Assembly: GCA_002633005.1 (NCBI GenBank)
Contig: NMRA01000317.1
Span: 62,001-126,000, forward strand
Origin: Phoronis australis
Lineage: Eukaryota; Animalia; Phoronida
DNA: 64,000 nucleotides
Direction: 5' to 3'
The notes beneath the pieces were generated by a model. The model was not told where the DNA came from, did not search any database, and saw only the letters and a program-made list of their open reading frames with translations. The position numbers and the translations under genes are program-made. Shown piece after piece: positions 144 to 58,615 of this stretch (position 1 is its first letter; every line of letters begins with the position of its first letter).

Positions 144-1020
144 TTTTTATGCGCCCACATATTTATATGTGGACGCATTATGCCGTCAACTGCGTCTGGG
201 CGGAGTCTGTCCAGCGTCCGTTTGGCGTCCGCTGCTCTGTCTCCAAAACCGTTTGACGTACGTTCATGAAATTTTGCTGATGTGTACCTTTTGTTGATGG
301 AACGGCATGAACCAACGTTCGGATGGATCCGACTACTGGTATGCCCCCTAGTGGCAATTTTAGTTTTTTACGTTTACCTCTATCTCTAAAGATCTTCAAC
401 GTATTTTTTTAAAATTTGGTATATAGGCATCTATTAATAAGATGACGGTATCCTCCCGTTTTCAAATGGATTCAACGTAGTTTGCACCACCTAGTGGCCA
501 TTTTTGCTTTTTTTTTGGCGTATACCTCTCTACAAACCAAATCATTCTAAGGATGGTTTTGAAAATTGGCGTATATGTTCTCAGTTTGAAGAGGACGGTT
601 GATGATGACAACTTTGACTACTCTGGCGCTTCCTAGTGGTAGTTTTGTTTCGTTTTGCGCCCATTGCTGCCTCTCCTAAACCCACTACAGGATCTTTATT
701 AAATTTTGTAAGTTCATTTATATGAAGCTAACAGCAGATAATGACGACTTTCAGGCGCATCCAATGAACACTGTGCCCCCTAGTGGCAATTTCATTTCAT
801 TCTGTTTTCCTTTGTTTCTCTGAAGTTCCATGACTGATTTCTATGAAATTTGGTGTTTAGCTTTCTATTAAAGAAGCAATGACATGTTCCCGTTTTCGGA
901 CGGATTATATGTTTTTGTACCATGTAGTGACCATTTTTATGACACAAATAAGCAACCCTAAAAGCACACCATTTGCGATGCATTTGTGGGCGCATTTCAG
1001 CACTCTGCGTTGCTCTTGTT
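144..1020 (+). mobile_element. HINE/DINE-1-type non-autonomous Helentron, copy 1
   Basis: T-run start; 5' subTIR ATGCGCCCAC within the hairpin atgcgcccacata-ttta-tatgtggacgcat; GTCY-like microsatellite; internal ~145-bp tandem monomers; 3' subTIR GTGGGCGCAT (986-995); short stem-loop then CTCTTGTT. Confidence 0.8.
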
Positions 1021-3736: not shown

Positions 3737-3954
3737 CTATGACCTGGTGAACAGGAGGCAAACATTCAATCCACAAGACCACACTGCCTCTGAGAAAATA
3801 CTGATATCAAATGGCTGGTTTTGCAATCAGATTGTAAACCATAACCATGCTATTCATCACAGTCCCTCTTATCTCTGTCTCATCATGTCTCTTGTATTTA
3901 ATAGCATGGGCTCTCATCATCTGTCACTGTTGGAGTGAGAACAACTTCTAAATC

Positions 3955-4669
3955 ATGAGTACCAGTGATGACCTGTCGAGGCTCTCGTATGACGCCAAGA
4001 TGGAGATTGAACTTGAAAAAGCACTAGCGCAGTCTTCTGTCAACAGCCTGGAGGCCTCGACAACAGGAAGCTACGATTTGATACCATCATCTGACCAGGT
4101 TGCTGTGACCACACTCAAGCCAAGTATAGTACCTCGGACGTCGCAACCCCATACGTATGAAAATGAAGACATTTTCAGGAAACACAAGGCAGAACTTTCA
4201 CATGGAAACACCGGTGATCAAAGCCAGGGCTCCAATGGGAATGACGATGCAAGTAAAGCTCTAAAGCTTGAAGGACGGAATGTTGACACTCCCGATGGTG
4301 GTGGTACCGAGGTACTTCCCATGAAATCTTTGGGAAATGGCGTTAAAATGGACAGAACATCACCACAAACGTATCAACAGGGTTCAAGCTCAGGTGAACA
4401 AGTTACAAGCAAAGATATGGTGCGGGACTGTAGCAACACATACGATGATACTGTCATTGGTACATCGGGTGTTAGTGTAGATGGTAGTGGCTCTGATGTA
4501 ACTGTCTCTCAGGGTGACATAATTACAGCGCCACCTGGCGATGATAGTGGGGAGTACGACGATGTAGCCAACCCGTTGTTAGCAACAGGAGTAAGTGAGG
4601 ATGGTAGAACGATTCCGGATGAAATTTTTTACGATGACGCATTTGTTCCCGAGGAGAATACCAAGGCAG
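3955..4669 (+). CDS. ARHGEF10: ARHGEF10-like coding exon 1 (acceptor at 3904; [12 protein letters not shown]...EENTKA)
   Basis: Long acidic ORF; acceptor tttaatag ends at 3904; donor CAG|gtgagc at 4670, phase 1. Confidence 0.8.
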
Positions 4670-19600: not shown

Positions 19601-22600
19601 CATTCCTGCCAAGTGAGTGAACAAAGCAGTCATTTACAACATACAGTCATTTGGTCATTACTGCTAAGTGAGTGATCAAAGAATGCAATCTTTACACTAT
19701 ACAATTGATCATTCCTGCCAAGTGAGCGATCAAAAATAGCAGCCATTTATGATCAGTTGATGGTTTGTGCCAAGTGAATGAACAGACAGCAGCCAATCGA
19801 ACTAATTCTGGTCATCAATACTGGAAAGTTAATGAACAAACTTGGTACAGATCATATTCATCATTCCTGTCTGGTGAACAAACAAAGATGGCAATCATTC
19901 GCTGTCTATAAAATTGTTCATTCCTGCCCAGAAAATGATCAAACATAGCAGTCATTTACATTGCACAGATGTTCATTATTGTCAAATATGTGAATTAATG
20001 TCACTTACTTTTTGTCTTTCTGTCAAGTAGCCTGTGTGTGTGTTTAAAGGGGAGCGTTACTTTTTTCAGTCAAGTAGTTTTTGTTCAATTTGGCATATGC
20101 TACCTTCTCTAAATTGTGTTTTGAATCTTTGTGTTGATTTTATTGCGCGCTTGTAGGGAATGCAGCTTAGCTAAACAGGTTGAAATTTTAGACAAAAGTC
20201 AGAACTTGTTCACTGTGTTGTCACTTCAGGTTTGAGAATCTACTATTTTTATTAACTTCATTTTGTATAGAAAACATCTGAAAATATTCAAAACACCTGG
20301 AATAGGAATTGAAATATGCCAAATTGATCTAAAAGGCCTTCAAAAAGGTGATGCTCCACATTAATACCTGTTTTGAAAAGTGTGGTTTGCTTTGTATATG
20401 TTTTAAATTGTAGTAAAATTGTAAAAAGGTTACGGAACATTGTAAACACCTAAACTAATTTCGTAAAATAAAGCTGAGAGGAATGACATGAGTGCATTTT
20501 CAGCAGTACGTGAAGAGTTTGGTAGAAAGAAGAATCATACAATGTCCTGAGTTATTTAGCTTTTTGTCATCAGCTCTTCGTTTGTAACTGTTACCTAATG
20601 AACCTGGAATGAAGAACAGTTTTTGACTGCTAGAGGCGTGGCATTGTACTCTTGAGCCTAGTATTGCTTGCTTATGTCGCGTGTTATAGTACGGCATTGC
20701 TTCATATTTCACGTAGAGGTGTTAAGTGTTTTTGGGAATCACGTAGTTGCAAGCAATAGGTCACCGCACTCTCTACTCTCCTGTTGGTTCTAGTGAACAG
20801 AAAAGAAGCAGATCGCACGATCAGACCGCACATGGACCGCACCACAAGAAGTATTTAGTCAATAGGTGATCAACTGCTGTTTCTAAAATTTGTGAAGTGT
20901 TTGCTTGCTTCTCTGTCTGTACCATCAATTCGTGTCTGTTATTTTTCAATGAGGTGGTTGTTTCGTGTTCTTGTCGTCTGCTGCTTTGTCTGTCTGTCTG
21001 TCTGTCTGTTGTTTCTGTTTTCATCTTGTCTGTGCAAGTTTGCTGGAATATTTTATACACACGCTGTGTCATTTAGTTGGCCCCTTCTAAGATAATGTAG
21101 AAGAGTTTACATGAGAAAGATTCATGAATTTCTTAAATGAACTCTCTGATGTGTAATATGATAGTGCGAAAATTGGAAATATTAGAAATCAGTCAATGTT
21201 ATCGCCATCTGTTTATGCCGATTTGGCTTTTATGTGCATCAAACATTTGTTTGGTTCTTTGGATTAAGGATTGTTTATCTGCTAAGCAAGCTTATTGCTT
21301 CAAAGGAGAATATGCCTTTTATGCCTTTATACTTTGCGATTAATTTCTCTACGTCTTTGATGATTGTCTTTGCTGTTGTTCAGTGTTATTTGTTTGTTAA
21401 CCCATTATTACTTCTGGGTCTGTTTCATGAAAGTGACTTCAGACTGAAATTTGGTCTTACGCTTCTATTTCACTATTGCTAAGAAAAGTTTAGCCACGCA
21501 ATTGTGAGCGCTTCGCTGTCCAGAAATAATTTATACCAGTTATCTACGACCGTAACTTGTTATGTGTAACGCTCTCAGAGACTTTGGACTTTAACACGAG
21601 TAGGATTTAATTATTTTTTCGAAAATAATTGTGTGGGACGTGAGACCAAAATAATTTTGATCTTCAGTCTAGTCACTTTTAATGAAAGAGACCCCTGGCT
21701 GCTCTCTCATAGTGTTATCACTGCAGCTTCAGTCCATGAAGTGTGTCAACCTATGGTTTCTTGTGTTTCCCAGACTCTCGCATGCCACTGCTGCTTATAG
21801 CATGTCAAATTAAAGCATCTACACCAATGTAAGTGGACACTTATATGTTTCCCATTTCGCTTGCCTGGTACGGTGAATTGCATGGAGTCGTGGAGGAGAT
21901 TTCAATTCCCTCATTTAATTACTCTAGGCATGTGTAAGAGAAACCATAAAAATGTCCTTGGAACAATTTGTCATTTCTTCATAAAATGAACTTTGCGTGT
22001 TGTGTTCTTAGTTAAGTACTCATCGGCCTAGTTTTACTTGAGGGAATAAAAACATTAATGATTATAATAACAAGTTTGAGCTTGGAATATGGTAAAATCT
22101 CAGTAATTTTGAACTCAATTTGGTGGACAAGTAAAATTAAAGATTTTTGATTTTTTCTATGAAAGATAGCAATAAATTTGTGCTTTCACATGTTCAAGGC
22201 CTGTACCATAGCAACCACCAGACAATAGTTTGAAAAATTGTGTTTGGACATTTACAACATTGTTTGAAGCCTTTGAAAAACAAAAAAGTAATTGGTAATT
22301 GTTTTTGTCCAGAAGCTGTGAAATTTTACCATACTACCCAGTTTGAATTCTCCAAATCTTTTTGTATCAGCGACATGCTTTTAGTAACTTCAGTCGTACG
22401 TTCTTTTCTTCCAGATCAACTAGTACAGTACGCTATTTCTTCCGTACACCCTCTCCTGGCTTGAAGCGTGATTGGGTGCTGGACTTCCAGGCTAGCAAAC
22501 TTGCTCTTGGTAAGCACACGGAGTGGTATTCAGCACCAGGTTGATCTCAGGGATGGGTGTTTTTAAAAAATGTCTACCTCTCTCCATCGATCAATTGTTT

Positions 22601-25600
22601 GTTGTATAACATCAGCGGCATTCTTCAACAATAGCCTACTCAGGATCTCCAAACTAAAGATCCCCCATCAGCGAAGGAACTTTTTCAGAAATACCTAGTG
22701 TATTCTACATAAAACTTTGGTGTTGTTTCAGCATGAAAGGGCTTTCTTTTGTCATCAATTTTTTCTGTGGGCAACGGATTAACAGTTATCCCCGCATGCT
22801 GTGTGACTTTTTTGCCTTTAGTAATCTCCTAAAAATGTGTTTTTTATTTTTTAAATTTTAGACTTGAAAAACCGCCCTGCCTGGGTTTTCCCTGAGAGTA
22901 CAATCACAACTGTCAACGCATTGTCCGAGGTGCCTCTGTTTTTCAAACCCCTGCCAACAGATGTCACTAGGCTTTACACAAAAGTGAGTACCACTATTGC
23001 TAAGAATGGCAAGCTTGGTAACATCTATTAGTCTTGCTTTGGTTCTGTGTTCCTATTTTCTAGTCCCTTCTCAAGACTGTAGGTTGGTTGATGGTTTCAT
23101 GATAGATATTTAGAAAGTGATGCCAACACAGATTGTCGGTCTTTGTGGTGGGCGTAATTACATGGCCAATAATTAGGTAGTCACCAGGCATTCAACTTGT
23201 TTTCAAGTGCATTTCCTAGGTCACATTTTGCTTGTTCATTAAACTCCACTCATTCAATTAATGACATCAATGTGAAAGTGAATTATTGGCGAGCGCAGCT
23301 GTACTCAGAACATCGATTCCTAAATTGCTCTTGACTGTGCTTGTATGATATATTTTTCCAGATCAGCTGTGGCTTACCGTTATACATCGTGAAGTCTGAC
23401 TTGGAACTGCAACACTTGTGGATATGCAGTAGTTTACCTGACAGGGGTCAAGTCACTGTGCTGTCAATGTGCTCCAACAAACCACACATACTGCAATCAT
23501 TTCAAGGTGAGTGGGTGGAGTCATGATGGGGGTGGAGTCATGGTGTGGGTGGAGTCATAGTGGGGGTGGAGTCATCGTGGGGGTGGAGTCAAAATTTTTG
23601 TGGAGTGAAGGTGTGGGTGGAATCAAAATTTGAGCCGTTGGTGAAGTAGCAATTTTTAAATGTATTTTTGTTGTGAGTAAAGTCTTGGTGTGAGTTTGTC
23701 ACAATGCAGGTGTAATCACAATTTGACTGAAGGCTGTCAATGTGCTCCAACAAACCACACATACTGCAATCCTTTCAAGGTGAGTGGGTGGAGTCACGAG
23801 GTGGGTGGAGTAAGAGTGCGGGTGGAGTTGCAGTTTGAATTGTGTGGGTTGTGTCGTGGTGTGGGTTATGTCGTGCGAGTTGAATGTGTTTGGATTGAGT
23901 GTTGTGTTATGAGATTCGGAGGGGTCACAGTTTATGCACCCTTATATACATATGTGGGCACGTTATGCCTTCATCGCTTTTTATTCAGCGTCTACTGCTT
24001 TATCTCTAAAACCCCCGTATGGTTGTTTGTGAAATTTCGCAGTCCTGTTCTTATCTTGAAGGAGATGAGCAAATTTTGGAATGGATTTGACCTCTGTCAT
24101 GCCCCCTAGTGGCAATTCATTTTTTACGTTAGCCTGTATATCTACTGCAGAGTTCCTTCTAGTTGACAGATGTTCGTGAATTTTGGCAAAGAGGATCAAT
24201 GAAACGACAACAATTGCCTTGTTTCAGATGTATTTGACTTATGCTGCACCCCTTTTGTCGGTTTTATTTCGTGCATTAATACGATGTTTATAAACGCCCC
24301 TGGAAGCATGCTTTTTGCGGTTTAGTAGTGGGCGCATTTCAACGCTTAGTGTCAGTCTCCTGTACTTTATCAAACTGGGGTAAATGACCTTTATACTTAC
24401 GGTGAATCATTTTTATAATGCATTCCATTTTGATGTCTGATAACTGAATCTGACAACTACATCATGAGACTAATGGAAGACAGGCTATCACTTTATTGAT
24501 CAGGCTGTGTTTTGACTAATTTCTGATTTGTTTTTCTGTTTTTGTCATTAGGGGCGTATATTAGTGCTATTTCCATTTAGACCAGAATTCTACGGTGGGT
24601 TTAAGACAGATGTTAGCCATGGCGTATCAACGACAGCTCAATTTGGTGAAAAAATAGCCACATTGTAGTTTTAATTATTTTCTTACCATTGGCTTAAAAG
24701 TCTGCGTGCTCGAGCGCATGTTCTTCTATTTTTAACCTGATCAATGTCCTGTTATATCACCTTGTCATAGCATCTGCATGCATTTTTCCTTTTTTCTGTT
24801 CTTCTAAAGATTTTCTGTATGCTTCATTTTTTCTGAAAACATAAAAGAACAAATTTCAACAAAAACTTTTTTAGTTAAAATATGTTACCAAATGGTGTTC
24901 CTTAAACATAATATCGATTTCTTCAAAAGTAAATGTTATCTGTTTTAGAAATTTTAAGTTTAATCCTGAAATTTGTGGTGTTACACCCCAGAGTGTCATG
25001 GGAAGTTGAATGATTTTGAATTTCGATGAATAAACTTGGAGAAATTGATAATAAATAATGCAAGTACATGCAGGGTTATCATTTGATAGGAAATTTCTCT
25101 ATTTTTGTCGTCAATGAATTTTTCTGTGGTGAAAATGAAGGAATATGCATACATTTTTGCCACCTGTTAGTTTTATTTAATTATTTATTAATGTAATATT
25201 TACAATGAGGGTATCCCCCAGGTCACACTGCTTTCCATGGGGGCCCTCAGTTTGTGGCATTGTTTATATGAAGTTATATAGTTATGAACATAAACATTGG
25301 TGTGTTTGTCAGAATATTTTACAATTTGGTTGTTGTGTAAAATGTATCTTTTGTTTTATTGTTCTTTCAATAGCCTTCTTGTGTTTGATCGACCTTATTG
25401 GTTCTTTTCGTAGCATGTGATGAAGCCATTACATGTGCAGAATTAGTTCCCGGTCATGCTGTTGCCATGACGGTGGATGGCTTTGATGATGACACAGTAT
25501 GGATGGGGACTGTGGCCAAGAGGTAAGTCACTGACCAGTGGAGCCATCTAGTGGTGGTTTCACATGAAGGCTGTGTGATGTACTTCAGTTATCTTACATT

Positions 25601-28600
25601 GGGTATATCAGATATAATGTGCACACGTTTGAGAACCAGACTGATGCCGGTTATTCAGTGGAGAAAACTGGTTCTTACAATGCAGACACGTAACATTCTA
25701 CCATTACCTTGCATTGTACATTTTAGTAATCAACAAAAATATGTATTTTAAGTCTTCTCGTAATTGGAAAGTGTGCAAACTAAACAAAAAATACGCGGAC
25801 AGCCATCGACAGGAAATAAATTATGCGTGGTTTCAGAATACGACTATTTTACTTTACAAACTGGCCATTATACATTCTTAGTGACTACAGGCGCTATAAA
25901 CTGGACGTGCTATTATCAGCGATTTGAATAGGTTAATCCAGTAAAAAACAAAAAAGTGAGAACAAATGTCTTGATTCAGTAGGCAACTCTGATCTTTTCT
26001 TGACTGCATCGTCTTTTTGGTGTGAATCTCATGCAGTTTGCTGAACAAAGACTTGCAGATTGCCCAAGAATTTTGACCGCCCCAGGTGAGTTGTACAACC
26101 TCACTTTTAGGGAGGTAGAAATGTTGCTTTTTTGATACATGCAAAATTTCATTATGTAGCGTGTTAAACATGACTCAGAAGTGGAGAAAATCGAAGCAAA
26201 TCGTTTGTGAGTAATTTAATGTTTCTGATATTTTTGATTTTTCAAATGTTACCATGACCACCGACACACCATATAGAAATTTTGAAGGTTCATATCTTAG
26301 GCTTACACAGGTAAACTCTACCGTATATTGCATTTTTCTTTGATGAATTACTTTTGGCCGCGGATGCAGTTCCACTTACTGTTTGTTATTCATTCTCCTT
26401 GAATAAAATCCCAAGGTCATTTCTATTAGATTTCAAATTGTGTGATTTTTTTAAAAATATGAATATAGGTCAGAGAAATAAACTCAAGTGTACTGTCACC
26501 ACTATGAAATTATGAAGACCTCTGAAGTTTTATCACGCGCTACGTTTGGTCAAGTTTCATTGAAAATGTGTGCATGTAATGCTCCTTGTTCTACTGTACG
26601 GAATAAAAAGATGGCCGACAGTGAATTCTGTAGAATAACTAACTTATCTGTTCGTGTGCAGATGCACTATGATCTTTTTTGTACCTTAATATATAAATGA
26701 AGAATTGACGGCTAAAATGATACAAAAATTTGAAAGTGGTCAAAAATTCTAAATTCAATTATTGTATAATTATGCAGTAAAATTTCACCAATTTAGGACA
26801 CAATATGGACGAGAATGAAATTATTTTTTCTCATTTTTTTCATAAAAGATGCGTAGCTTCAAATTACTGCTTTACCATGTTCAAGTGCTGTACCATAGCT
26901 ATAACTAGGAAACATTTTGATTAATTTTGGATATTCACAACAATGTTAGAAGGCGTTGAAAAGTGAGAATAAGGTCAATTTTGCCAATTATTTTTGTCCC
27001 AAAATGGAGAGATTTTGCTTTACCTTCCTTACAGTTTTCATCCTGAGAACAAAAACCTAATATGAACTTATTTCTTAATCATGAATTTTTATCAAAATGA
27101 GTTACCAGGTAACCCATATCTTCTAGAATATTTTTATTGGCTTGTCATGCCGCACCTTGTGACATTTAAGGTAACCGATATAACTGGGCTGTCGTTATTT
27201 CCCGCCAGTTGACCGAATTCAGATAATGACACCTGTAAGGATTTTATTATTTTATAATTATTCTTACTGAGAACGACAGTTATGAGGTTATTTCCAGCCA
27301 GCCAGGCACCTGATAGTTCTGCATGACTAGTCAATAAACTGTGTTAATTGTTATCATGGCTTCTCCCCAATGGAGGAACACATCACTAGGGAAAAATAAG
27401 TTAAACTATCATATCAATAAATCATCTCAAATATAATATACAGATCCGTGTAAGCGTTTAGAATTAATGAGCCTGGTGCTACAATTTTGTGTGCTGATCT
27501 TGACATGGTCATGTTACAGTACACGCCAAAAGTATTAAGACAAAAAGGCACAGAATTCCCCATCCTGATGATTGGGCTGAAGTATAATTCATCGTCTTAG
27601 AAGTCTAACTTCCCTCACGACAGACAATGAAGGGATGTTAACAGGGAATGTTAAGGAGGTGGCTAAGTCATTCCGTAATTTGAATTCTCCCATCATAATA
27701 GTCATTCCCAGCTTTTTATGCGCCCACATATTTATATGTGGACGCATTATGCGGTCATCTCCATCAGTCCGTCTGGCGTCCGTCCAACCGGCGTCCACTG
27801 CTCTCTCTCCAAAACACCTTGACGTATGTTCATGAAATTTTGCATGTGTTCCTCCTGTGGTTGGGACAGCATGACCGAATTTTCGGACCGATCCGACTAC
27901 CGGTGTGCCCCCTAGTGGCAATTTTAGTTTTTACATTTACCTCTGTATCTTCAAATGTCCTGAACGGATTTTCATAATATTTAGTATATAGGCACCTATT
28001 AGTGAGATGACACTATCCTCCCGTTTTCAGATGGATTTGACGTAGTTTGTGCCACCTAGTGGCCATTTTTACTGTTTTTGCGTCCACCCCTCTATCAACC
28101 AAACCGCTCAAAGGATGATTGTGAAAATTGGCATGTATGTTCTTACTATGAAGTGGACAGCTGACAATGATTTTCCGATGACTTCGACTACTGTGGCATC
28201 TCCTAGTGGCAGTTTTTTTTTTCGCCTATGGCTGTAACCCCTAAACTTTTCGCAGGATCATTACTAAATTTAGTAAATATATTTATATGATGTTAACAAC
28301 GAAGGACGACGACTTTCAGACGGATCTGACTACTGGTGTGCCACCTAGTATGTTCAAAGGTCCTCAAGGCAAACAGGCATCTGGTAATGAGATGACGCTA
28401 TCTCTCCGTTTTCAGATGGATTCGACCTAGTTTGCACCACCTAGTGGCCATTTTTACTGTTTTTGAGTCTGCTTTTTGGCGTCCACTCGTTTATCAACCA
28501 AACCGCTTTCAGGATAATTGTGAAAATTTACATGTATGTTTTTATTATGAAGTGGACAGCTAACGACGATTTTCCGATGAGTTCGACTACTTTGGCGCCT

Positions 28601-31600
28601 CTTAGTGGCAGTTTTGTTTTTTGTGCTCATGGCTGTATCTATTGAACCATTTGCAGGATCTTTACTTAATTTAGCAAGTATATTTAACTGATGTTGACAA
28701 TGGATGACGACGACTTTCGGACGTATTTGACAAGTGGTGTGCCCCTAGTGGCAATTTTAGTTTTTACGTTTACCAGTCTGTATCTTCAAAGGTCCTCAAC
28801 AGATTTTCATAAAAATTTTAATATAGGCATCTATTGGTGAGACGAGGCTATCATCCTGTTTTGGGATGGAATCGGGGTATTTTCACCACCTGGTGGCCAT
28901 TTTTTGCTGTTTTCAAATCTTGTTTTTGGCGTTCACCCCTCGATCAACCAAATCATTCTAGGGATGGTTTTGAAAATTGGCGTATATGTTTTCAGTGTGA
29001 AGAGGACGTTTGATGATGGCGACTGTCTACTGTGGCGCCTCCTAGTAGTAGTTTGGTTTTGTTTTGCGCCCATGGCTGTATCTCCAAAACCCACTGCAGG
29101 ATCTTTATTAAATTTAGTAAGTGAATTTAACTGAAGATAACAGACGACGACTTTCAGGCAGATGGAATGGACACTGTGCCCCACAAGTGGCAATTTCATT
29201 TTGTTCTATTTTCCTTTGTTTCTCTGTAGGTCCTTGACAGATTTTTCTGAAATATGGCATGTTCCCATTTTTGGATGGAGTGTACGTTTTTGCGCCATCT
29301 AGTGGCTATTTTTATGATACAAATAAATAACCCCAAAAGCACACCATTTGCGATGCATTCGTGGGCGCATTTCAACGCTCCGCGTTGCTCTTGTTGTTGT
29401 TAGTAGAATTGGTCGTCATGACGTGGAAATGATAGCTAGTCTGATTACTTTCGTCTTTGTGTTGTATGTGCTGACATCTTTGTGTTGCACACTGTGGGTG
29501 CATATCAACACTGTCTTGTCGTTTCTCTAGCTCGTGTCGTTTCTCTAGCTCGTGTCGTTTCTCTAGCTCATGTTTTTGTCTTGAGTTATATTATAGGCAC
29601 TTAAATATGTCACCTCAACTGAGCTGACACAAATATTGCGAAGGGTGTATAGAATTAGTGAGTTTCAAAATTTTATTTTTCTGGATCCTTTTTCTGATCT
29701 AGACATAATCACAGGGATATATCTAGGTTTCAAAACCTTGCTCGCCAGCTGGGCGAGTGAGCCAGAAAATCTACTCACCCAGCCCAAATCCAGTCTCCCA
29801 GCCGTTTGCATCACTTGCTACCAATGTAAATAAAAATCATTGTTTCGTGCGTTGATGCCACCATCTATTAGGGCTAGTATCGTTTTTAGAAAATAAATTC
29901 CTACTAAGAAACTTTTGACGTCGATGAATTCCCAGCAACGCAAGACTTTGCCTTGGCGCAAAGCTACAACAGGCTACAGCTACGGTGCCGATGTGGGTAA
30001 AAGACTGACCAGATAAAATCTGATACAATAGTAGTTTTATTAAAAACTGCACTCTTCCTCACTCCTGACACCAAAATGGAAGCCCCCAACCAAAAGCAAC
30101 AGCGCAAGAAATAAACTTATCATTAAGCGCAAGTCAAACATTTTGTCCACATCCACGTGTTCAAAAACTTATTCTTTGAACTTTTGATTTGCCTGGTGAC
30201 TTTTTACATGATGTGTGTTTGCTTCATTATTTTGGCAGCCTACAAAGCACCCCAATGCATAATAGTAATATCGTGGGATTGTTGAGGATGTGCTTTGAAC
30301 AAGCGCGGGTTTTGGCTTTGAACTAAAAAAGAAATAGACAATGTATATAAAATGTTACATTGTTCAAAGTATTCAGTTAGAAAATCTGTCAATCATTAGC
30401 ACGTGTTTGGTTGCCTAGGTGTCCAGCAGGAAGCAAATCTTTACAAATCAAGTGCTGCCCATAAAATACACCACGAAGTAGCGGAATCTTGCTTGATCTG
30501 TCTTTTCTCTCAAGAAACTTGCCCTACTGAATACACGCCTACCTGTATGAATACCTTAGTTCCAGGAAATGACGAATAGCCACCGAGGTACGTAAAAACC
30601 CAATCACGCTCAGGATCACGACGCCACTGTATCATGCACTACAGGCCGTCGGAAGTCCGTTACTTCAATCCCCCAACCTATCTTTTAACTGATATGCTTG
30701 AAGTCCGACGTCAGCGTAGCTCCGTGATGGTAAACTCAAGTCCTTCCCGATCCCTTGCATAATCAGCCAGTGTTTCATATAATCACCCTATTACTGTCGG
30801 CTAATATGACCATTTTCTGTCATAAACTCATCGGTTCGGCATGGAAAGCTAGATGTGAATGAGGTCATAATGGCTGGGTTTTGATGCCAATGAAAAGTAT
30901 AATAAAAAGATAATCAAGATGATGAAAGCCAGAAATAAAGGTTGCTTCTAATAAAACTGATGACTTAGACGTTAATATTTTGGTACTTCATAAAAGTGGA
31001 CAGACAGACAACTAGTCGAGGTGAAGATATGAAAAGTGAAGGGAGGTTTTCAGGCAATTTGCCTACAGTAATTCTCCACTTACTTTGCACACTCACTTGA
31101 TTTCGCACACCCAAAATTATTAGGAATATAACATTTTGTTCCGCAGTTATTTCACATGAGACTACTTGACAGGAATTTCTTGCCTCAACTAATTTCGCAA
31201 AGGGTCCGTTTTGTACCTGGGAAAATGTCAGCACCAAGTCCTCACTTTAATCCTGGGATCCTTTTCATGGTCGTACGCTGTTTCTGAAAAATTATTACCT
31301 GGGCAAAAGTGCCTGAGAATAAACGCGTAGCAGCTAGTTGGAGATAACTTCCATAACTTATCTTTAGACTGCGGTGCGCTTATAATTACTTGACCATTGT
31401 GAATAATGGGAGCATAGGGTAAAATGGTGAAATATCTGTCTTATGTCTTGAGTCACTTTTCATGAAACAGACCCCTCCCCAGTGTTAAAATCTTTTTATT
31501 TATGTTGCTAAGGTCTATACATTGTATAGTCACCACTTAATTCGTGTGGAATAGCTCATTAGAAACTTGGCCACACACAGATTGCAGTACAATGGTTGAT

Positions 31601-34600
31601 AAAATCTTTCAGGAACACTGATCTAACTTAACTTGACTTAAGGGCAATAAAGTACTGACTGAAATAGATTAAACTATTGTGGACTAAAACTGTTGATTTT
31701 TTATGTTTGATGTCTGAAGTTGAATTTCCTGTTCAACGTTATGATAGAACCAGTTTTTTTTTCAATGAAATGCGATAAGTGTTAGCCAAATACGATCTCA
31801 TTATTGCAGTTTTGTTGACCAACGGATGTAGTAATTGGTTTATGACATGTGAGCTCTTACAAAGGATTGCGAGAATGCTTCACAATTGTTCTTAAACTGA
31901 TCTTGGAAACCTGTTTTTGTCAGGAGTTGAAACTGTAGGGTGTGGGGTGGTGTTTGTAATGTCATGCTGTTGTAAACATGCAGTAAAGGGGTTGATCAAG
32001 ATGTGTATCGTGTGGTTCAGAGGTACGGTATTTGTTGACTAGAACATTTCACCAATGAGGGGGTAAACTGCATTATTATTAGTACAGGGTAACTTCTGTT
32101 AATAAGGTTTCATGTCGAGTCATATCAGTAATGTGTGAAAAACACCAGAAAAAGGTAACATACCTGCAACATGCTCTGCATGTTGTCAGTGTTTCAAACA
32201 TGTCATCACTTCAAAAAACCTTGAATAGTAATTGTGAACATGGAGCTTGTCTTGTGATAAACTTTGTTACAACAAGGTTTTTGTTGAAGTTGATGACATA
32301 CTGTTCTTAGGAACACAGCCACAAAAAATATACATGCATTATTATGATGCCTCCAAGCCATGATGGTTGTAGAGCTGTACCCCTGTACGAAGAGCTGTAC
32401 CCCAGTATAGGTAGAGTTGTACCCCTGTATGAAGAGATGTAGCCCGGTATGTAGAGCTGTACCCTGGTATGTAGAGCTGTACTCCACTATGTAGAGCTGT
32501 ACCCTGGTATGTAGAACTGTACCCTTGTATGTAGAGCTGTACCAAGTAGGTAGAGCTGTACCCTGGTGTATAGAGCTGTACCCTGGTATGTAGATCTGTA
32601 CCCTGGTATGTAGAGCTGTATTACGGTAGGTAAAGCTGTAATCTGCTATGTAAAACTTTACTCATGGCTGTAATTTTGATGCCACCATGCTTACATATTG
32701 AATTATCCATTAAAGTGCGAGAGCAACATTTGGTGAAAGTGAGTTGCTGACTGATTGTCCAGCAATGTTATAACTAGAATTCAGTACGTGAAATTTGTGT
32801 CTGCGTAACAATGGGGTCAATACTTTCATATTGAAACACAATTACTATTTACTAGATCAGATAACTCATAAGCTGCGTTTTATTAAATTCATGCTTAGTC
32901 AGTTGGAAGCCTTATGCATGGTTACTCGGCTAATTTTTTAGTGAACCTTGGACTACAAAGTCTGTATTTTCAGTTTATCCTGCCTGTGGGAAAAATGTAT
33001 ACTAACATATTTTGTGCGAAATAACAATCGTTCAGTATCCTTCAAGACCCTAAATAGTGCACCTGTAGTCTCAGTGGTATCTCCTCCTTATAAATAAATT
33101 GATGAAAACTTGTCAAAAAATACGCGAAATTATGGTAGTGTTTTTAACAAATTAATTGAGTGACCTCAATTGGCCAGCAAGTGAATTGTTGTTGAGGTAA
33201 CCAATATTGCACTTTCAAGCAGCAGAAATACATTGCAATGACCATTTTGTTCATGTGGTTGAAATTTACACTAAAGAGTTCAGACTAAGGTTACGCCCAC
33301 ATTGAGTGCCATCTGCTTCTGGATCCTGTTGTGTGAAACAGGTCATTCACTATATGAACAATGACTTTACAGTAATAAAACATTGGCTAAACAAGTTGAT
33401 AAATCGTTGACTAAAACTGGTGATTTTTCTGACAGTTTGTCTTCTGAAGTTGAACTCCTGGTAAAAAGTTATGTTAGGATCATTTTTAAGACCAGGAAAA
33501 TTTGCCAAAATGGATGCGCTATGTCTCTGTGCTCATTGAGCCATGACAGATAATTGGCTTGCGAGTGGTGATGTCAGACAAAAGCGTCTGGAGTTTAAAC
33601 CAGATGTGAGGTTTTTGTAGTGTCTAATTCCAACGCAAGTCAATTCTTAATTCTGTCTTGTCGAGCATTCTGTCACTTAAATGGTTGTCCAACACTCAAA
33701 TTTTTATTCTTGTTCCTGTACGCAACAAGTTACGAACTTGGTATGAGGGAAGAAGTGTTTGTCTTCCCTTGAGTTCTGCTGGCATCTGCATAAAAGTCTG
33801 GTGGGTATGTACATAAACATGTTATGCAATATATGTGATGATAGCTGTGGGTTATTATATTTTGATTCATGCTATGCAACCAAATCCCTGACTTTAGGCT
33901 TGCACATCATGGATATTGACGTACAGTAAAGTTTCCATAAAGTCGAACCAAAATAATGGCCAAAACTGTATTTTTTTTAAATTTCAAACTCTCATTGTAT
34001 TGCCAACAATTCCATCTTGTGTTTGTTGATGACAGTCGTACTACATGAAGTTTTCAAGTAGTAAAGTAAAATGGTCTTCTTGTTTACCCTAGATCAAAAT
34101 TTTGATCAAATAAAAGTTTTCTGTTCCGCCATATTGTGTTCTAATTTTAAAGATATTCAAAAACTCAGCACACTTTGATCTCTTGATCCTTACATGTGTT
34201 GTGTAGAGTGTAGTTATAGTACATTCACACTTCCTTGATGGCTAAACCTCATGAGCAAAGCCACTGACACCTGTACTTTTAATAAAGAGATTGTTTTTGT
34301 TCTGAACAGCTTCGTATATTTTTATGCGCCCTCATATTTATATGTTGACGCATTATGCCGTCATCTCCATCCGTCCGTCCGGGCGGCATCCGCTGTTCTA
34401 TCTCCAAATCCCTTTGACATACGTTCATGAAATTTGGCATATATGTTCCATTCATGAATGGTATGTAGGCACTATTAGTGAGATGACGTTAACCTCCCAT
34501 TTTCGGATGGATTCGACGTAGTTTGCGCCACCTAGTGGCCATTTTTACTGTTTTCGAGTCTGTTTTTGCGTCCACCCCTCTATCAACCAAACCACTCAAG

Positions 34601-37600
34601 GATGATTGTGAAAATTGGTATGTATGTGCTTACTATAAAGAGGACAGTTGATGATGGTTTTCTGACGATTTCGACTACTGTGGCGCCTCCTAGTGGCAGT
34701 TTTGTTTTTGTTGCGCCTATGGCTGTATCTCTTAAACCGTTTGCAGGATCTTTACTTAATTTATCAAGTGTATTTATATGATGTTGACTACGGATGACAA
34801 CGACTTTCGGAAAGATCTGACTACTGCTGTGCCCCCAAGTGGCAATTTTAGTTTTTAAGTTTAACTCAGTATCTTCAAAGGTCCTCAACAGATTTTCATA
34901 AATTTTGAATATAGTCATCTATTGGTGTGATGACGCAATCTTCCTATTTTTGGATGGAATCGAGGTATTTTGCACCACGTAGTGGCCATTTTTGCTGTTT
35001 TCAAATCTTGTTTTTGGTGTCCACCCCTGTATCAACCAAATCATTTGAAAATTGGCATATATGTTCTCAGTGTGAAGACGACCTTTGATGATGGTGACTG
35101 ACTACTGTGGCGCCTCCTAGTGGTAGTTTTGTTCTGCGCCCATAGTTGTTTCTCCTAAGCCCACTGCAGGATCTTTACTTAATTTAGTAAGTGTATTTAT
35201 ATGAAGATAACAACAGACGACGACGACTTTCAGGTGCATCGGACGGACACTGTGCCCACTAGTGGCAATTTCATTTTATTCTGTTTTCCTTTGTTTCTCT
35301 GAAGTTCCTTGACAAATTTTTATGACATATGGAATGTATCTTTTTGCGCCATCTAGTGGCCATTTTTATGATACAAATAAATAACCCTAAAAGCACACCA
35401 TTTACAATGCATTCGTGGGCGCATTTCAACGCTACGCGTTGCTCTTGTTAGTGTTGAAATTGTTGACTGACGTAATTCTATGTAAAACCTAAGAACGGTA
35501 AAAATTCTCCAGTTTGGGATGGTGAAAAATTATCATTTTGCTCGAGGTCAGAGCTTGTACCAAATTTTAGAAATTGGCAATATAGGGCGTCCCAAATTCA
35601 AGCATTACAGTAAATGACAAATGATAACTAATAACATGAATGACAAGCTTGAGTTGGCAGCTATTTTGGACGATTTTACGCTATTGTCAAGTCTATTTTC
35701 AGGCTCTGTCCTTACAGAACACAGTAGTCTTAGAGTAACCACCCATAGTGTCCTCATAGGGGACCTAGAAATTCTTAGCAGTGTAAGATTTTTTGGTTGT
35801 TTCATGTTGAGGTGGCCCCCCTGAAGCATTTAAGCTGCGTTGTAATAATGACAACTTTGAGCATTTTTAAATATGCAAATTAAAGCTGCTCTTATATGCA
35901 AAACTCTGTTTTTGCTCTTAACTTCGTTCCCAGGTTCTGTAGGTAAATTATTTTGGTGTTTTTACTTTGTTTCCTAGGTCAGAGAGTTCAATGGAGCTAG
36001 TTTACAGGTGGATAAATCGTGACATTGCATAATTTTTGTGAGTTAAAACTGGCACTGTTCAAAAACCTACTTGTGCTTATAGCTTGCACAAAAACTCCAC
36101 AGGTAAATTATTCTGATATTTTCTCCCATGTTTCTATGGTCACTTAATTTAATTAAATCGGTGTGGAAGCCCTTGCGAGGTGATAAATTTCCATAATTTA
36201 TGCAAATAATGACCACCATTATCTGAACGTCTGTTTCTATTCGTGACGGCCTTAAGTCTCTTTCCCAAGAGGAAACGTGTCACAGGGGCGTTCTCAGCTG
36301 ATACATAATATCACAAGAATTGTTGTCAGGGTTCCATATCAGTTTGTTTTAAACCTTTGAAATCTTTTGACTTCTTTGTTTTGATACATGTTTCAACAGA
36401 TATAAACAAAAAATATGATTTTGAGATTACAGTTGCATTTTGCCCTGTGTTTAGCTGGCCAAAAACAAAGATCGAATTAGGAATTTTACTTTCAAAATAC
36501 TGGTCTCGTATATTGCTTACCATATGACAAGATTCCATTTCATTACCAACTTAAGTCACAGAGAATGTGTATATGTGCCATTGGTTGGGGCCGAGATGCA
36601 GCAGCCTAGTCACATTTGTGATGATGTGACAATGTAACTGACTAGATGCGCAGCAGCTAGAATGAGCAAACACAGCCATTGTCTTGATGACAAGTATCTT
36701 AACTTTCGAGAACAACTTTCCGACAATCAGGTGTTTGTTGAACTGATGAAAAAAGAAAATGACATTTTAAATATGCCAGGTTGTGTATCAGTTGTTGGCT
36801 GTGGAAATTTTCCAAGCAAGTCTTTAAAATTTGGCTTAATGCTGTAGTGGTGAAGGTGGAGGTATGTATGAATAACTCGACATTTTCTAAATTACCATTT
36901 TGTTTACTGTAACTTTTGAGTCTTGTTGAAAATTGTAAAATTTCTATTTTTGATAGCCCCTCATGCAAAAATGGATCCTTATGAAAACAATTTCTAAAAA
37001 CGTTTTGGAGAACATTGCACAAAGCATATTATCATACGAATCCGATCAGCTGTTTTTTTTTTTTGAGATAGGATGTTCCGAATTTTGTCAAATTTTGACA
37101 TTTTTCTAGTCAAGTACTACATAACCTTAAAAGGGTTTTGGTTTATCATGCTACCACAACAGGATAGTGTGATGTCAGTTATTTGCTATAGTAAAAATGA
37201 TTTTGGCACGGACAAAAAACTAACCACTGTAAAGTTTCAAAACATTTGAATAAAAATAATTGCAAACAATGACATTTTCCCATTTTCCAAAAGCTCACTT
37301 CATTGTGAAAATGGTCAAAATTTCACGTGTGTTTGTTGATGACGGCTGTATAATATAAAGTGTATGAATGATGAAGTAAAATTTTCTTCCTCTTTTGGCT
37401 TGTTCAAACTTCGTGAAAATAAAATTTCACTGTCCCGCCATAGTGTGTTGTAAATTAAAACAGCTTTTCTCTATATTGTGAAACTATTTACAAATCACTC
37501 GGTGAGGGTATTATGCAAAAACACGAATGCCACAGATTATATTAACTCTGCTAAACCATTGACCTGTCATTTATTAAAGTTGATATTTCAAGTTTGGCAA

Positions 37601-40600
37601 TACCTGTGGTTAATTGTGCAATATTTAGTAATAAAATATGGGTGTATAAACTTATGCTGGTGAGATAACAATGTTTTCTCATTACATACAAATCAGTTTA
37701 GTGTTTGATGTGTTGAATGCATTCAGAGTTCAAGGAAATGCTTTTTGCATTGTTTATTCAACATCAGTATGATAAAATCTCACAATTTCGTACAAAAATA
37801 ATTTCCAAAATTGTCCTTTAAAGTGTCTTTCAGTGTCAAAAGTAATATTCAGTTTTGTAGAATAAGGAAGTTAAGGCTGTTGAATCATAGATGACTCTCT
37901 GTTGAAGTTCCCGGATTCATTCTATCAGCGCAGTAAGATATGCATCCATTTGTTTGGAAATATTCTCTTGACCACTTGAGGCAACAATCATGAAATATGC
38001 AATGCAAACTGCAGTGACAGAACAGTAATGACATTAGTCTAATACAGTGCAGGCCAAAAGTATTTAGATAAAATGACCTGGACTTCACCTTTATGATGGC
38101 TGGCCTGAAGCCAAATCGTCTGGGTAATCTTCCCTCATGGCCAAGATTATGAAGGGGAATTAACTGGAAAGTTGATAAAATGGCCATAATAAGCTATTCT
38201 GCAATTATAGTTTCGTCCCCTATATCATTTTAATTAGCCACCATGACAGGAAAAAGTTTTTTGTGTGGCTGATTACTTTTGTCGTGTGCTTTGTATCCAT
38301 GTAACTATTATCTAGGAAATGCTTTCATCGTGACATCACAATGCTCCCTCAGTACAGTTACCTGAGTGCTTTTCATTCATGAGCCATAATTGTGAGAATG
38401 CCACCATTTGGCAGAATTTTTACTGCATTGACTCAAGTATGTGTTACTTGTTCACAGTCATAGCCCTGGAACAGTTTTGTCTAAGGTTTGCCTGATCATA
38501 TCTACCATGACTGAGGCACATTCTTCTGCATTATTTATACAGTAAAATCTCCCCACTTTCGCACAAAAATAATATCCAAAATTGTACTTTTTCATATTTC
38601 AAAGGCTTCTTGTATTGTTGTTCATGCCCACATTTTTTTCAAAATATTGTCTGTTGGTAAACAATGTTACAGAACTTGAATAAGACAAAGCATTAGTTCG
38701 GAACTATGTAATTGTTTATGAAAACATGAAAAAACAAAGTTTCAAGGATCCCCTATATTGTGTCCTAAATTGGTGAGATTTTAATGATTGACACATGAGT
38801 ACATTTTACATGACATTCACAAATCAGTTTTAATGAACTGTAGTCAGTGAAATTCAAGACATACAACTGACTTAGCGAACACAAGGCACAGGACCATTGA
38901 CAAAACAGTGTCCTGCATGGATATTGTTTTGGCTTAACTAAAGTGCACATTTCCATTATTATGTTTTTAAACACATTGTAAAAGCCATAACATGGGGGAT
39001 TGTCTGCAAAATCCGATTGATTGATCATCGGTGACACATTTTTCACCTTCCTTGAAAATTCTTCTACAACCATATTTTCTAGTTTAACTGCTTGCAGGTT
39101 CTGATGGCAAAGTTTTCTCCTAAGGCCCTTTCATATTGACTTAACTCCGGTCTGAGCGGAGCGTCGATGTAGACAGCGCAGTTAACTGGACTGTTCATAC
39201 TGGCTTCGGTAGTTAATGACCATCGAAGTAAAGGGTCGGTGACGCTGACGTCATCGAAGTTATCGCAAGGTAGCACTGCACGCTAAGATTTTTTTTCAAT
39301 GTGACAATTTGGGAACATTTAAATGTGCTTAATGACATTAAACTCATTTTTAAATCCATTGGTTATCATTAGAGCAAAAATAAGTAGTTATTAGTGACGG
39401 CACTACTCTGTAACTGTTGACGATAACAGTGGCACCTAGCAGTAACTTCGACTGGACCGGAGTTAAGCGTTCATACTGCACCGCAGCGTCGACGCTGCGG
39501 TCTTAAATCCACCTGTTAACTGCGATGTTAATTGGAGCTGTTAACTGCGATCCAGGACCGGAGTTAAGCGTTCATACTGACCACAACTCCCCAAACCATC
39601 GACGCGTCGACGTTAGTATGAAAGGCCCTCTAAGGCCAAAAGAAGACTTTGAGTTAAGCATCTTCTGTCTGGATCATTGCGTTTTGCCTAATCCAGTTAC
39701 ACACAGTAAACATCTGGGGTGTCATGTTTCCCTAGGAAGCAATTTACCAACAGAACACTTTAGGACTACTTTCCAATGAATGAATAAATCAGTAATGTGG
39801 ACCAGTAAGATTGTTCATTGTTTTAGTTTATAGGTTGTTTGAAGCAGGTACCTTTTTTAATTTTTACATGTAATTTAATCAGTTGTTGAGATTTTAAGGA
39901 ATTCAAGTTTGAAGCAGATACCTTTATTTTAAAATTGTCACGAGGAATGTAATCTTTGAGATTAAATCGAGTGCAGTTAAAGAGGGTTTGAGGAAAAGTT
40001 TAATTTTTAATTTTCAATCGCAACAGTGTAGCAAATAATAATCACGGGGGCTAAAATGGAACAAAGACAGAGTTTGCAATGCGTACTGCACTATTGAAAA
40101 AGTCTTTGGTAGTCAACATTGATACACCGAGACGAAATTTTGTTTTAGAGCTTTACACTAGTTTTTATTAGATAAGAGATCTAATGTATGATAAACTATT
40201 GGCAAATAAAATTGGTCTGCACGGTAGGCCTATGTGGAAGGAAAATTACTCATATTTTATAAATACTCATATTTTATAAAACACTCCTGTACATGACTTG
40301 TTGTGTCATAAAAAAATCACATGTAATCGTCTGTTGCCATAGATAATAATGTGGAATCATCTGACGTTTTGCCAGCAGATATTTGGCTAATTGCACACAC
40401 TTGTAAGGTCCCACCCACTTTTAAGTTATAGTTTACTGAAAATACACTATGGTGAATTCTCGCCTATCATTTGGACAAAAATGATTACTGAAATTGCTCT
40501 TTTTGTTATGAATGAACACATTTTTCAAAATATTATTTGATGGTAACTGCGGTAGAGATTAAACATCTTTCATAGAAAAAGTGAGAAAATACGATTTCAC

Positions 40601-43600
40601 GTGCTGTCGTAGTGTATCCTTTGTTGGTTAGAAGTTACCGTAGGCAACAGACAGAACCCATCATCTGTCCTTCAGGTCATCCTTGTCATAGATGTCCATC
40701 GTTTCTTTACAGTATCGTTGTCCACTCGCTGCCCAGTCAGGATGTCCAGGACAGCACTAGTCGACCCCAGCCTAAACTGACTGTTACACTACCCAGCGTT
40801 CCAACTCGGCTCAAGTTCACATGTAACAGGCTTATCGTGGGCACGGAAAATGGTACATTGGTTATTTACTCCAGAGCAAAAGGTAAATAATTACAGTAAA
40901 ATTTCCTTGAATTTGAACAAAATAATGGCCAAAATTGTCGTCATTTATTCTTCAAACGCTCATTACCAAAAACGAAAAAAATTCACCGTTTGTTTATGAC
41001 AGTCGTACTACGTAATGTTTTCAAGGTATCAAATCAAATGTCTTCTTGTTTCCTTTTGTAGTAAGCTTTGTTAAAACAAAATTTAATTGTTTTGCCATGT
41101 TGTGTTCCAATTTGAAGACATTTTATCGTATTGTAACCAACTTCCTCTGTCACATTCAAATGGTCACCTGATGGTACAAGGAGACAAAACATTGTGTCAT
41201 TCAAATCTTCAGTCCAGTAAAATGTCACCAGTTTAGGTCAGAAAGTTGTGGACAAGTGAAGTTTTATTTTACCACTTTGTCATAAATGATATACAGTACT
41301 ATAGTGACGCTTTGACATGTCTATATGTTCTGTATTGAAGCTATCAACAGAAAGTATTTTGAAAAATTGTTTGCATTTACAGCAATGTTAGAAGCCCTTG
41401 AAAATAGCTGTGAACAATTATTATTCTCAAATGTTGAGATTTTATCATACTTTCTTGGCCGGCCGCTAACATTTGACTGGGTTTAGAGAGCCACCAAGGT
41501 CTGGGGTCTATGCCCCAACATTTGACTGAGTTTAGTGAGCTACCGAGGCCTGCGGCCTATTCTTCTTACTCAAAGTCGAACTAGAAAGCATTTTTGACAT
41601 TTTCCCTTGTACTTAACTACCAACTCAAGGTAATTATCTATAATTATATGTCTAGATAATGGTTTACTTACAAATTCACACTTGAGGACTCTTAGATTCC
41701 AGTTAAAACTCCTGCATAACAGGATTTTACAATCATCCACATTATCTAGCATAGAATTTGAGTCAATTATCTTGAGTTCCTTTTAAACATGACTTATAAT
41801 TTGCAATTACAAATTACACGCCACTCACCCCTATCCGCCTGCAGATAGGGCATTACCATACCCTTTGTGTTTCTAGTGCAATACACCTAGTTTGGTAGAA
41901 ATAATTACAGGTGCAGTACTTTCTAACAAAGATTTTATACAGTACTCATGCCTGTCTAGGGACTACCTGGCACCATGCCGAGAATTGGCATACCTTAAAA
42001 ATCCAGCTGCTGTGTGGTGGTTTGGTAACAGTCCCAATTATATTGCACACCCACCAGAAATGGCAACATTATAGAAACATTTCTGGTGGTAAAAGTCACA
42101 TTTCTTGTCCAATTTTCAAAATTCAGAAACCTAAATCATGTGTACTTTTCATGAATTATTCAAATATGCTATTTACAAACTTTCAAAACGCAAATTTAAA
42201 AATACTATTGTCGCTCCCAATGTGTTTATGATGGATCTCATTATTTAGAGAACGATAACATCAGCAGCCAGAGGCGATTTAATTAATCACAAAAGCATGG
42301 TGCCTTTGATCTAAACCTGCAGATTTTGTTGTCCGCAATCTGGTCAAGTTGCCCAATGTCGACCGGTTAGGGTGTCAAACATAGGATTCTTTTCGTGACA
42401 GTTTATGCCTCTAAACCTCCTTACACGAATTTTTTGACTGCCAGTGTTTGCAAGGCCGCGATTGTGAACAGTTTGATTGTTTGTCCAGACTCCTGTTTCA
42501 TGTTAGCAATTTTCCACCCTTTGCTGTCCCTTTCAGTTCTCAAATCTGATAGTTTGCCCATACCAAGTATTGCTTGACATATACCAATATATTGGTTCCT
42601 AGCATACATTAAGGAACTAATTCTGTTCTGTTTTGATACCACCCTTTGTCCTTTCTTTCATAGAAATGTCCTTGTCAAACTATTTGTCTTGAGTTCTGTT
42701 GCAATGAAAAGGGCAAATATTGAAAATAGGCTATCAGTAACCATGTGATCTGCTTATGTATTGTTACCACTGATATATATCTTTGTTAAATTGTCGTATG
42801 AAATGTCATTTCCTTATGACTGTTTTTATTTAAGCAACAAATAGAATCTGGGTTACAAACTTGAAACTTTTGGCGCCACTGGTCCAGAAAACTTAAAATG
42901 TTTATATTTAATAATGTTACTCAAATTTCCTTATCTTCTTGTGTTGATTTTACCAATTGGAAAACTTTTTTTGGTTGCCTTTTAGTGCCAAGTATTTTTT
43001 TTTTTGCTGCAGATTCTTGTTTACTGTTGTGTATTACTTCTCAAGTTTTGTCTACTTCACTCAACTGAGACGTTCCCCTATTATGTATTTATCTCTGATA
43101 TTCGCTCAGTTTAGGTGGTTGCAAAAGTTGATTTGGGGAAAGTCTCAATACTTAAGTAACAATTTAAATCTTGCACTTCTTTCTTCTATTAATACCGTAA
43201 ACATTTGGGTTATCGCCTTTAGCGCTTTAAGCCTGTATTTCACTGAGTGGGCGCTTATCCCAGAGGTAGGCACTTTAATCGGAAATTTCAAGAAATTGGG
43301 GATGGGCGCTTATCCTAACATGGGTTCTTGACCTGTGCCAGGCAATGACCTGACCACCTATGGCCTTTAGAATTGAAGTACACAGATCCAAAGTTAAAAA
43401 ATTTGTCACAAAGCTAATTGCTAACACAAAAATTCAATCAGTGCTCTCTAATTGACACGTGTGTTCGAGTAGTAAGTTTACGAATTGAAAAAGGTGGAAA
43501 TACACATTTAAAGATACCTGCCAAAATTCTACTTGCCAATGTTTATGAATGTCATTTGAATCTTTGAAGATCCAAAGTTGGATAAGTCTAAATCCAAACT

Positions 43601-58393: not shown

Positions 58394-58615
58394 TCAATTG
58401 TGGTCGTGTCCGGAAGTCATGTCTACCGGGGCCACCTGGTCCTTGCTTCTCTGTTTGATCTGCGCCAGGGCCTTCTGGCGGGGAGACATCACCCCCGTCA
58501 CTGGAAGAAGAGGGTCCCCAACCGTTGTGCTGAGTCGGTCCAACTCTGCTTTGAGGTCCGATATTTCAAGGCGCATTCGCACATTGTCCTGCTGGTATTC
58601 CTCCAGCATGTGATT
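58394..58615 (-). CDS. Terminal coding exon of the same unidentified gene (NHMLEEYQQDNVRMRLEISDLKAELDRL...GHDHN*)
   Basis: cgtttcag acceptor, 222 nt to TGA, heptad-like pattern; followed by ~3 kb of T/G-rich - strand sequence typical of a 3' UTR. Confidence 0.8.
   Translation of the reverse strand, partial: NHMLEEYQQDNVRMRLEISDLKAELDRLSTTVGDPLLPVTGVMSPRQKALAQIKQRSKDQVAPVDMTSGHDHN

Follow-up and report, generated by a model that had tools for sequence, protein, structure and literature searches.

A non-autonomous Helentron of Phoronis australis with a same-facing CTCF-type motif in each monomer, which may have been kept for the element rather than for its host

Introduction

The anatomy of the non-autonomous Helentrons (HINEs), or HINE/DINE-1 elements, has been set out by Thomas et al. 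(2014; PMC4067079), and in the oyster the Cg_HINEs combine a GTCY microsatellite with central monomers of 140–180 bp (Vojvoda Zeljko et al., 2020; PMC7492417). Here we analyze an element of this kind in a 64,000-nucleotide stretch of the genome of the phoronid Phoronis australis (assembly GCA_002633005.1, contig NMRA01000317.1, positions 62,001 to 126,000 of the forward strand; hereafter the window). Its central monomers each hold a site resembling the binding motif of CTCF, and a sequence-only reading had proposed it as a mobile insulator cassette that serves the host. We find that constraint tracking the information content of the motif is present between the diverged monomer types and was not detected between inserted copies. 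This motif-preserving divergence within the array is the interesting part of the locus, and an insulator role is the weakest part of the proposal.

Transposable elements (TEs) that carry sites for host factors are already known. Rodent B2 short interspersed nuclear elements (SINEs), among others, spread CTCF sites (Schmidt, 2012; PMC3368268); in lamprey, 489 of the 586 copies of hAT-Tip100 #274 lie under CTCF peaks (PMC5504073); and zebrafish TDR13B and other non-autonomous DNA transposons carry CTCF sites (PMC7182764). The present family is like these in that a transposon spreads CTCF motifs, with a survival benefit to the element having been proposed. It is unlike them in being an invertebrate rolling-circle element with two to 11 same-facing candidate sites in a higher-order repeat, where the vertebrate sites are validated by chromatin immunoprecipitation (ChIP), and in that the divergence of its monomers records selection on the motif. 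None of the 40 repeat types in the zebrafish Table S3 (PMC7182764) is named Helitron or Helentron. Caenorhabditis Helitrons carry clustered heat-shock elements (Garrigues, 2019; PMC6927752), which are likewise many sites for one host factor with an original benefit to the element suggested, but there the factor is HSF-1, binding was shown by ChIP, and the outcome is induction of nearby genes rather than chromatin architecture. Minisatellites of C. elegans Helitrons (PATC) have been connected with protein-independent insulation in a 2026 preprint (bioRxiv 10.64898/2026.08.08.743475), again linking the internal repeats of a Helitron to insulation and to protection from silencing, although through a mechanical 10-bp periodicity and not through protein-binding motifs. 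Nematodes with compact genomes are described as lacking CTCF, and in an annelid CTCF is present and sits mostly at promoters. C. elegans itself is not known to have CTCF, and Ellison and Bachtrog reportedly described in 2013 how Helitrons spread MSL sites.

The sequence-only reading knew of no Helentron with CTCF arrays, and the literature searched, with subscription journals, Repbase and bioRxiv supplements outside the search, likewise holds no description of one; the nearest approaches are a Drosophila paper on Helentrons with a single mention of CTCF and two papers that pair CTCF with DINE-1 in one or two mentions. TE-borne CTCF sites and Helitron-borne arrays of factor sites both have precedents; their combination in a Helentron is new to the searched literature.

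A CTCF-type core in each monomer of a trimeric array

The element at 27713–29395 is a non-autonomous Helentron, as the earlier reading had identified it, and its ends, subterminal inverted repeats (subTIRs), microsatellite and array all agree. Its parts are the following.

27713..29395, + strand: whole HINE copy, ~1.68 kb, no coding capacity seen
27713..27747, + strand: 5′ end, with T5, the 10-bp subTIR 27718–27727 and its inverted repeat (sequence, fold)
27767..27796, + strand: degenerate GTCC/GTCT microsatellite (sequence)
27791..29318, + strand: central array, 11 monomers of ~143–147 bp, three types (nhmmer)
29361..29395, + strand: 3′ end, with the subTIR 29361–29370, a palindrome and terminal TT (read from the sequence)

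The following diagnostic traits of a HINE are found: subTIRs, a 5′ inverted repeat, a 3′ palindrome, a microsatellite with central repeats, and defined ends flanked by T. The two subTIRs match perfectly over 10 bp, slightly under the 11–15 bp reported for other HINEs (PMC4067079; PMC7492417). At the 5′ end, 27718–27747 is a 30-nt near-palindrome, 86.7% identical to its own reverse complement, that can fold into a hairpin of −10.1 kcal/mol, and at the 3′ end a palindrome with a 6-bp stem (29373–29387) was read from the sequence, the minimum-energy fold having picked another pairing. In four DNA runs, from two samples of one study, contigs of other HINE copies end exactly at 27712/27713 and at 29395 with unrelated flanks; in X1 (41,346 records) there are 86 and 256 loose ends at 27712/27713 and 476 at 29395. 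Summed depth is about four orders of magnitude higher within 27713–29395 than in the flank, a figure that is not a copy number. No target-site duplication was found in the three full copies of the family when the termini of all five copies in the window were compared, and no empty insertion site came to light.

In its subTIRs, 5′ inverted repeat, GTCY microsatellite, array of monomers in the 140–180-bp range, 3′ palindrome, T-flanked ends and lack of a target-site duplication, the element is thus like HINE/DINE-1 (PMC4067079) and the oyster Cg_HINEs (PMC7492417), and it is unlike both, as far as these sources describe them, in having a CTCF-type core per monomer and a fixed trimer array. Across both files of the oyster array table, 3.37 million characters in all, four 7-mers from the CTCF core occur just 11–54 times each, so the core is not a per-monomer feature of oyster HINEs. 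Six short motifs had no match in the supplement text of PMC4067079 (42,774 characters), which possibly does not contain the element sequences.

Within the array the monomers follow one another as a0 b c, a b c, a b c′, a′ b′, where the types a, b and c share only ~51% identity pairwise. In a tree of 25 of the 27 monomers in the five copies, two short ones being excluded, monomers cluster by array position across copies and not by copy, which indicates that the trimer order is inherited as a unit, and the copies vary in trimer number. The array is therefore a trimeric higher-order repeat rather than a single repeated monomer, which qualifies the earlier description. Its monomer types are too diverged for Tandem Repeats Finder, which missed it.

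Cores were scored with a reconstructed form of the vertebrate CTCF matrix JASPAR MA0139.1 (its column sums, 913–908, are self-consistent), and were called strong at 13.1 bits or more (p ~1e-5, uniform background).

27903..27921, − strand: CTCF-type core 1 (a0), 21.2 bits
28047..28065, − strand: CTCF-type core 2 (b), 22.9 bits
28194..28212, − strand: CTCF-type core 3 (c), 13.1 bits, private change at 28199
28336..28354, − strand: core 4 (a), shortened by an internal deletion, 2.4 bits
28432..28450, − strand: CTCF-type core 5 (b), 19.9 bits
28593..28611, − strand: CTCF-type core 6 (c), 12.9 bits, private change at 28602
28736..28754, − strand: core 7 (a), 1-nt deletion, 5.9 bits
28881..28899, − strand: CTCF-type core 8 (b), 17.8 bits
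29033..29051, − strand: CTCF-type core 9 (c′), 11.0 bits, private change at 29047
29174..29193, − strand: core 10 (a′), 1-nt insertion, −2.2 bits
29290..29308, − strand: CTCF-type core 11 (b′), 21.3 bits

About 11 cores on one strand had been counted before, and the six quoted by position (27905, 28049, 28433, 28594, 28883 and 29291) all lie there; nhmmer delimits 11 monomers, and all 11 cores face the same way. Six of the 11 are strong, five reach p<1e-6 and eight p<1e-4 (uniform background), with the best (22.9 bits) at p=5e-9 under this matrix, and three are broken, by a truncating deletion, a 1-nt deletion and a 1-nt insertion. CTAG is present in nearly every core. The upstream (M2) motif has no clear match in the corresponding flank, a T-rich tract as judged by eye, no scan having been made.

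Core-to-core spacings run 144, 147, 142, 96, 161, 143, 145, 152, 141 and 116 bp. The term phased, used for the array before, fits only loosely: most of the spacings are 141–152 bp, and those of 96, 116 and 161 bp fall at indels. A near-nucleosomal spacing had also been noted, but it is no evidence here: a nucleosome needs 147 bp, and the ~126 bp between cores would leave no room for one between bound sites; oyster HINEs, moreover, have monomers of 140–180 bp without the core. Nucleosome phasing is rejected on this geometry and these monomer lengths.

That the resemblance to CTCF sites exceeds chance, as had been claimed, is borne out: the element has 6 strong matches, whereas 2000 dinucleotide shuffles of it gave 0.013 on average and never more than 1. 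Across the five copies, 18 of the 27 cores reach 13.1 bits. A pattern made without the matrix, from the bases that Holohan (2007; PMC1904468) gives as invariant, matches the window 16 times where 2.23 matches are expected, and 12 of these lie inside HINE copies. Since all cores descend from one ancestor, the fairer null is a single monomer, and none of 20,000 shuffled monomers reached 20 bits. This bears on the idea that a CTCF-like word was present by chance in one ancestral monomer and was then copied without selection. The shared ancestry of the cores, which makes them count as a single origin, speaks for such an accident, but besides the shuffles, simulation with the background divergence, ~31% per lineage, never in 50,000 runs left all three types with at least 19.9 bits. 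The accident is already disfavoured on these grounds, and we consider it highly improbable.

Motif-preserving divergence between monomer types

Between types, the best-conserved windows of 10, 14 and 19 bp all fall within the core (0.82, 0.81 and 0.77), against a mean of 0.51 outside it and 0.64 for the best 19-mer elsewhere, which upholds the earlier statement that the core is better conserved than the rest of the monomer. Conservation by column correlates with matrix information (Spearman 0.52, p=0.02). The types a, b and c vary at five of the 19 core positions, and each nevertheless scores 20–22 bits; at core positions 4, 8, 9, 17 and 19 the letters of the types match those that CTCF allows. 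Random changes would leave ~3–4 bits (P 0.0005–0.004 in all six directed type pairs, three cores with indels being excluded from this test), and the 13 type-level variants together cost 15 bits where 45–49 are expected (P ~1e-4). As the test takes the number of changes as given, the choice of the most conserved window has no bearing on it. A consensus tie in two small types added costly letters to the type-level variants, which makes this test conservative and the test of private changes described below slightly generous.

The prominence of CTAG invites a different account, in which the core is a mechanical feature of array building, either a relic Helitron-type 3′ end (a short palindrome followed by CTAG) or a site of recombination or slippage, and its likeness to CTCF is incidental. 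In keeping with it, some a-type monomers have a 5-bp palindrome ~15 nt upstream, and one deletion breakpoint lies directly after the CTAG of core 4. However, a perfect 5-bp stem occurs in just three of the 24 cores folded, none of the loose ends with unrelated flanks in the best-supported rows listed coincides with a CTAG inside the element, and conservation reaches beyond CTAG in both directions, in line with the matrix. The relic 3′ end in particular is weak, and the mechanical account as a whole seems to us quite unlikely.

Decay in inserted copies

Comparison of inserted copies gives a different picture, although with low power, as it draws on three copies, aligned in four segment pairs. 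Differences occur at 15 of 124 high-information core bases, at 10 of 139 low-information ones and at 238 of 1603 in the rest of the element, so that the high-information bases are not distinguishable from the rest (p=0.51); purifying selection on the cores was not detected at this locus with these three copies. The 22 core changes that are private show no significant tendency to be milder than random ones (P=0.11). Among the best 40 of 364 variant rows, 31 lie in the HINE, 3 of them in cores against 3.8 expected. At 28199, 28602 and 29047 the CTCF-type base accounts for 94–98% of the summed depth (X1), which indicates that the copy at 27713–29395 has decayed away from its family. CpG transitions (48 of 114) exceed those at other G/C pairs (76 of 337; p=9e-5), and the CpG observed/expected ratio in the DNA around the HINEs is 0.55, as if the copies were decaying in the way expected for methylated DNA.

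These patterns weigh on the proposal that the family is an insulator cassette kept for the host, in which insertions bind CTCF and are selected by the host as boundaries or directional loop anchors. The cassette draws some strength from the 18 of 27 cores still at 13.1 bits or more, one of them in each of two old copies, from the slightly better keeping of the whole core between copies (p=0.02), and from lamprey and zebrafish, where TE-borne CTCF sites are bound. But the high-information bases of the motif are unprotected in the copies, the copy at 27713–29395 has three broken cores and three more with private damage, and CpG decay is evident. Five copies per 64 kb in and around one gene, moreover, are hard to square with one boundary per insertion, and in an annelid and in zebrafish CTCF sites show no clear link to domain boundaries. 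The host-serving role proposed from the sequence is therefore not supported, and we regard it as unlikely.

Probable selection on source elements

Taken together, the retention of the motif between types and its near-background decay between copies probably reflect selection on source elements rather than on insertions. We give about even weight to the reading that this is a high-copy HINE in which the same-facing CTCF-type motif of each monomer was kept because CTCF binding would keep source copies open and copied, and not for insulation of the host. A survival advantage from CTCF sites was proposed for retrotransposons by Schmidt (2012; PMC3368268). In the Helentron, Rep/helicase would be supplied in trans by an autonomous partner, and host CTCF would bind unmethylated cores, shielding the source elements from silencing and keeping them unmethylated and accessible to Rep/helicase. 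Variants with intact cores would then have transposed more often. After insertion, most copies would become methylated and lose their sites by drift, and a minority of insertions could serve as boundaries by accident. Given the absence of the core from oyster HINE arrays, the CTCF box seems to have been added in this lineage to an older monomer, other boxes of which are also partly conserved here.

Several observations weigh against selection on source elements through CTCF. The whole 19-mer is better kept between copies than the rest of the element (25 of 263 differences versus 238 of 1603, p=0.02), an effect that comes from its low-information positions, and in a test of such low power a weak copy-level constraint on the cores is not excluded. 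Oyster HINEs spread well without the core, which makes it dispensable for transposition. Core position 12 is free in the matrix and yet invariant across types, and further boxes of the monomer outside the core are conserved between types, so that the monomer is under some constraint besides CTCF.

The core could belong to another zinc-finger protein of CTCF-like preference, whether the fingers of the Helentron Rep or a host protein, and help to load the transposition machinery. It is indeed one of several boxes that are conserved between types at fixed spacing within the monomer, position 12 varies less than expected from the vertebrate matrix, and Helentron Rep has N-terminal zinc-finger-like motifs (PMC4067079). 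Set against this, the variation between types follows CTCF-allowed letters at core positions 4, 8, 9, 17 and 19, and the CTCF-type motif is also enriched in host sequence outside the HINEs. Rep, besides, presumably acts at element termini, which counts against its fingers as the binding partner. We find this alternative rather unlikely.

The enrichment outside the HINEs consists of 11 strong CTCF-type motifs against 0.4 expected from shuffles, at 2084, 4526, 6695, 7052, 9576, 18354, 22951, 25539, 54819, 56943 and 61986. They lie in both orientations and in apparently unrelated contexts, several with a CTAG center like that of the HINE cores. This excess suggests that the host uses a CTCF-type motif and fits a genome that would encode CTCF. 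HINE copies account for 18 of the 29 strong CTCF-type motifs in the window.

Other copies and genomic setting

The remaining four copies in the window are the following.

144..1020, + strand: second full HINE copy, five monomers, four cores at ≥13.1 bits
5395..5845, + strand: older degraded HINE copy, two scored cores, one of 18.1 bits and one lost
23931..24362, + strand: older diverged HINE copy, two monomers, one core of 18.0 bits and the other lost
34319..35449, + strand: third full HINE copy, seven cores, six at ≥13.1 bits

The five copies, all in one orientation, cover ~7% of the window (4571 of 64,000 bp). Open reading frames of at least 80 amino acids over the HINE look like repeat read-through. 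Pattern scans of metagenome and prokaryote collections returned no match for an autonomous Helentron partner, and exact-pattern scans of metagenome contigs and prokaryote genomes returned none for HINE relatives, a result of little weight for an animal repeat. Rfam has no matches across the window.

The element at 27713–29395 is intronic. An ARHGEF10-like Rho GEF gene has its exons on the + strand, spanning by homolog matches at least 12497 to ~49500, and the HINE is flanked by homologous exons at ~25500 and ~46160. Annelid, gastropod and nemertean homologs score highest, with small margins, which places the host among the bilaterian invertebrates. As a multi-exon gene it was drawn over 3952–49516, where a long open frame at 3952–4794, without a homolog match, may be the N-terminal exon. 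All five HINE copies are co-oriented with the gene, for which the chance is 1 in 16.

Other repeats are frequent in the window. A second interspersed family (~250 bp, 68–72% alike, both orientations) occurs at 22092–22331, 26775–27022, 38538–38786, 41215–41404 and 45111–45323, and two inverted pairs of ~500 bp with 86–89% identity (2318–2846/16312–16839 and 39122–39627/51824–52311) are probably other transposon copies. A separate repeat begins ~350 bp to the right of the HINE (29740–29900), where summed contig depth rises more than 100-fold. The old HINE copy that begins at 23931 is directly preceded by a minisatellite (23511–23828) with a 17-bp unit of the GGGTGGAGTC type. Further tandem arrays are found at 32364–32652 (period 20), 58615–58942 (46), 60313–60420 (18 bp) and 59547–60170, the last with a period of 310 bp in two copies that are 99% alike. 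An identical 139-bp direct duplicate (63220–63358 and 63862–64000) close to an N is possibly an assembly artefact. A short frame at 3231–3477 resembles a Penelope-like element in its C-terminal, endonuclease part.

Implications

A further-reaching form of selection on source elements, which we think possible but doubtful on the present sequence evidence, is that a rolling-circle lineage evolved and maintained a directional, multi-site CTCF array that shields it from silencing, and thereby became the main source of CTCF sites here, with young copies seeding boundaries or loop anchors.

With SINEs that carry a single site it is difficult to test whether TE-borne CTCF sites serve the element itself, as suggested by Schmidt (2012). 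Three monomer types at ~51% identity, each with a strong motif, in copies that decay, separate element-level from host-level selection within one family. If CTCF binds these cores, the HINE family would predominate among the CTCF sites of an invertebrate, a setting in which the architectural role of CTCF is unsettled, and motif-only Hi-C analyses in such genomes would need to have the family masked.

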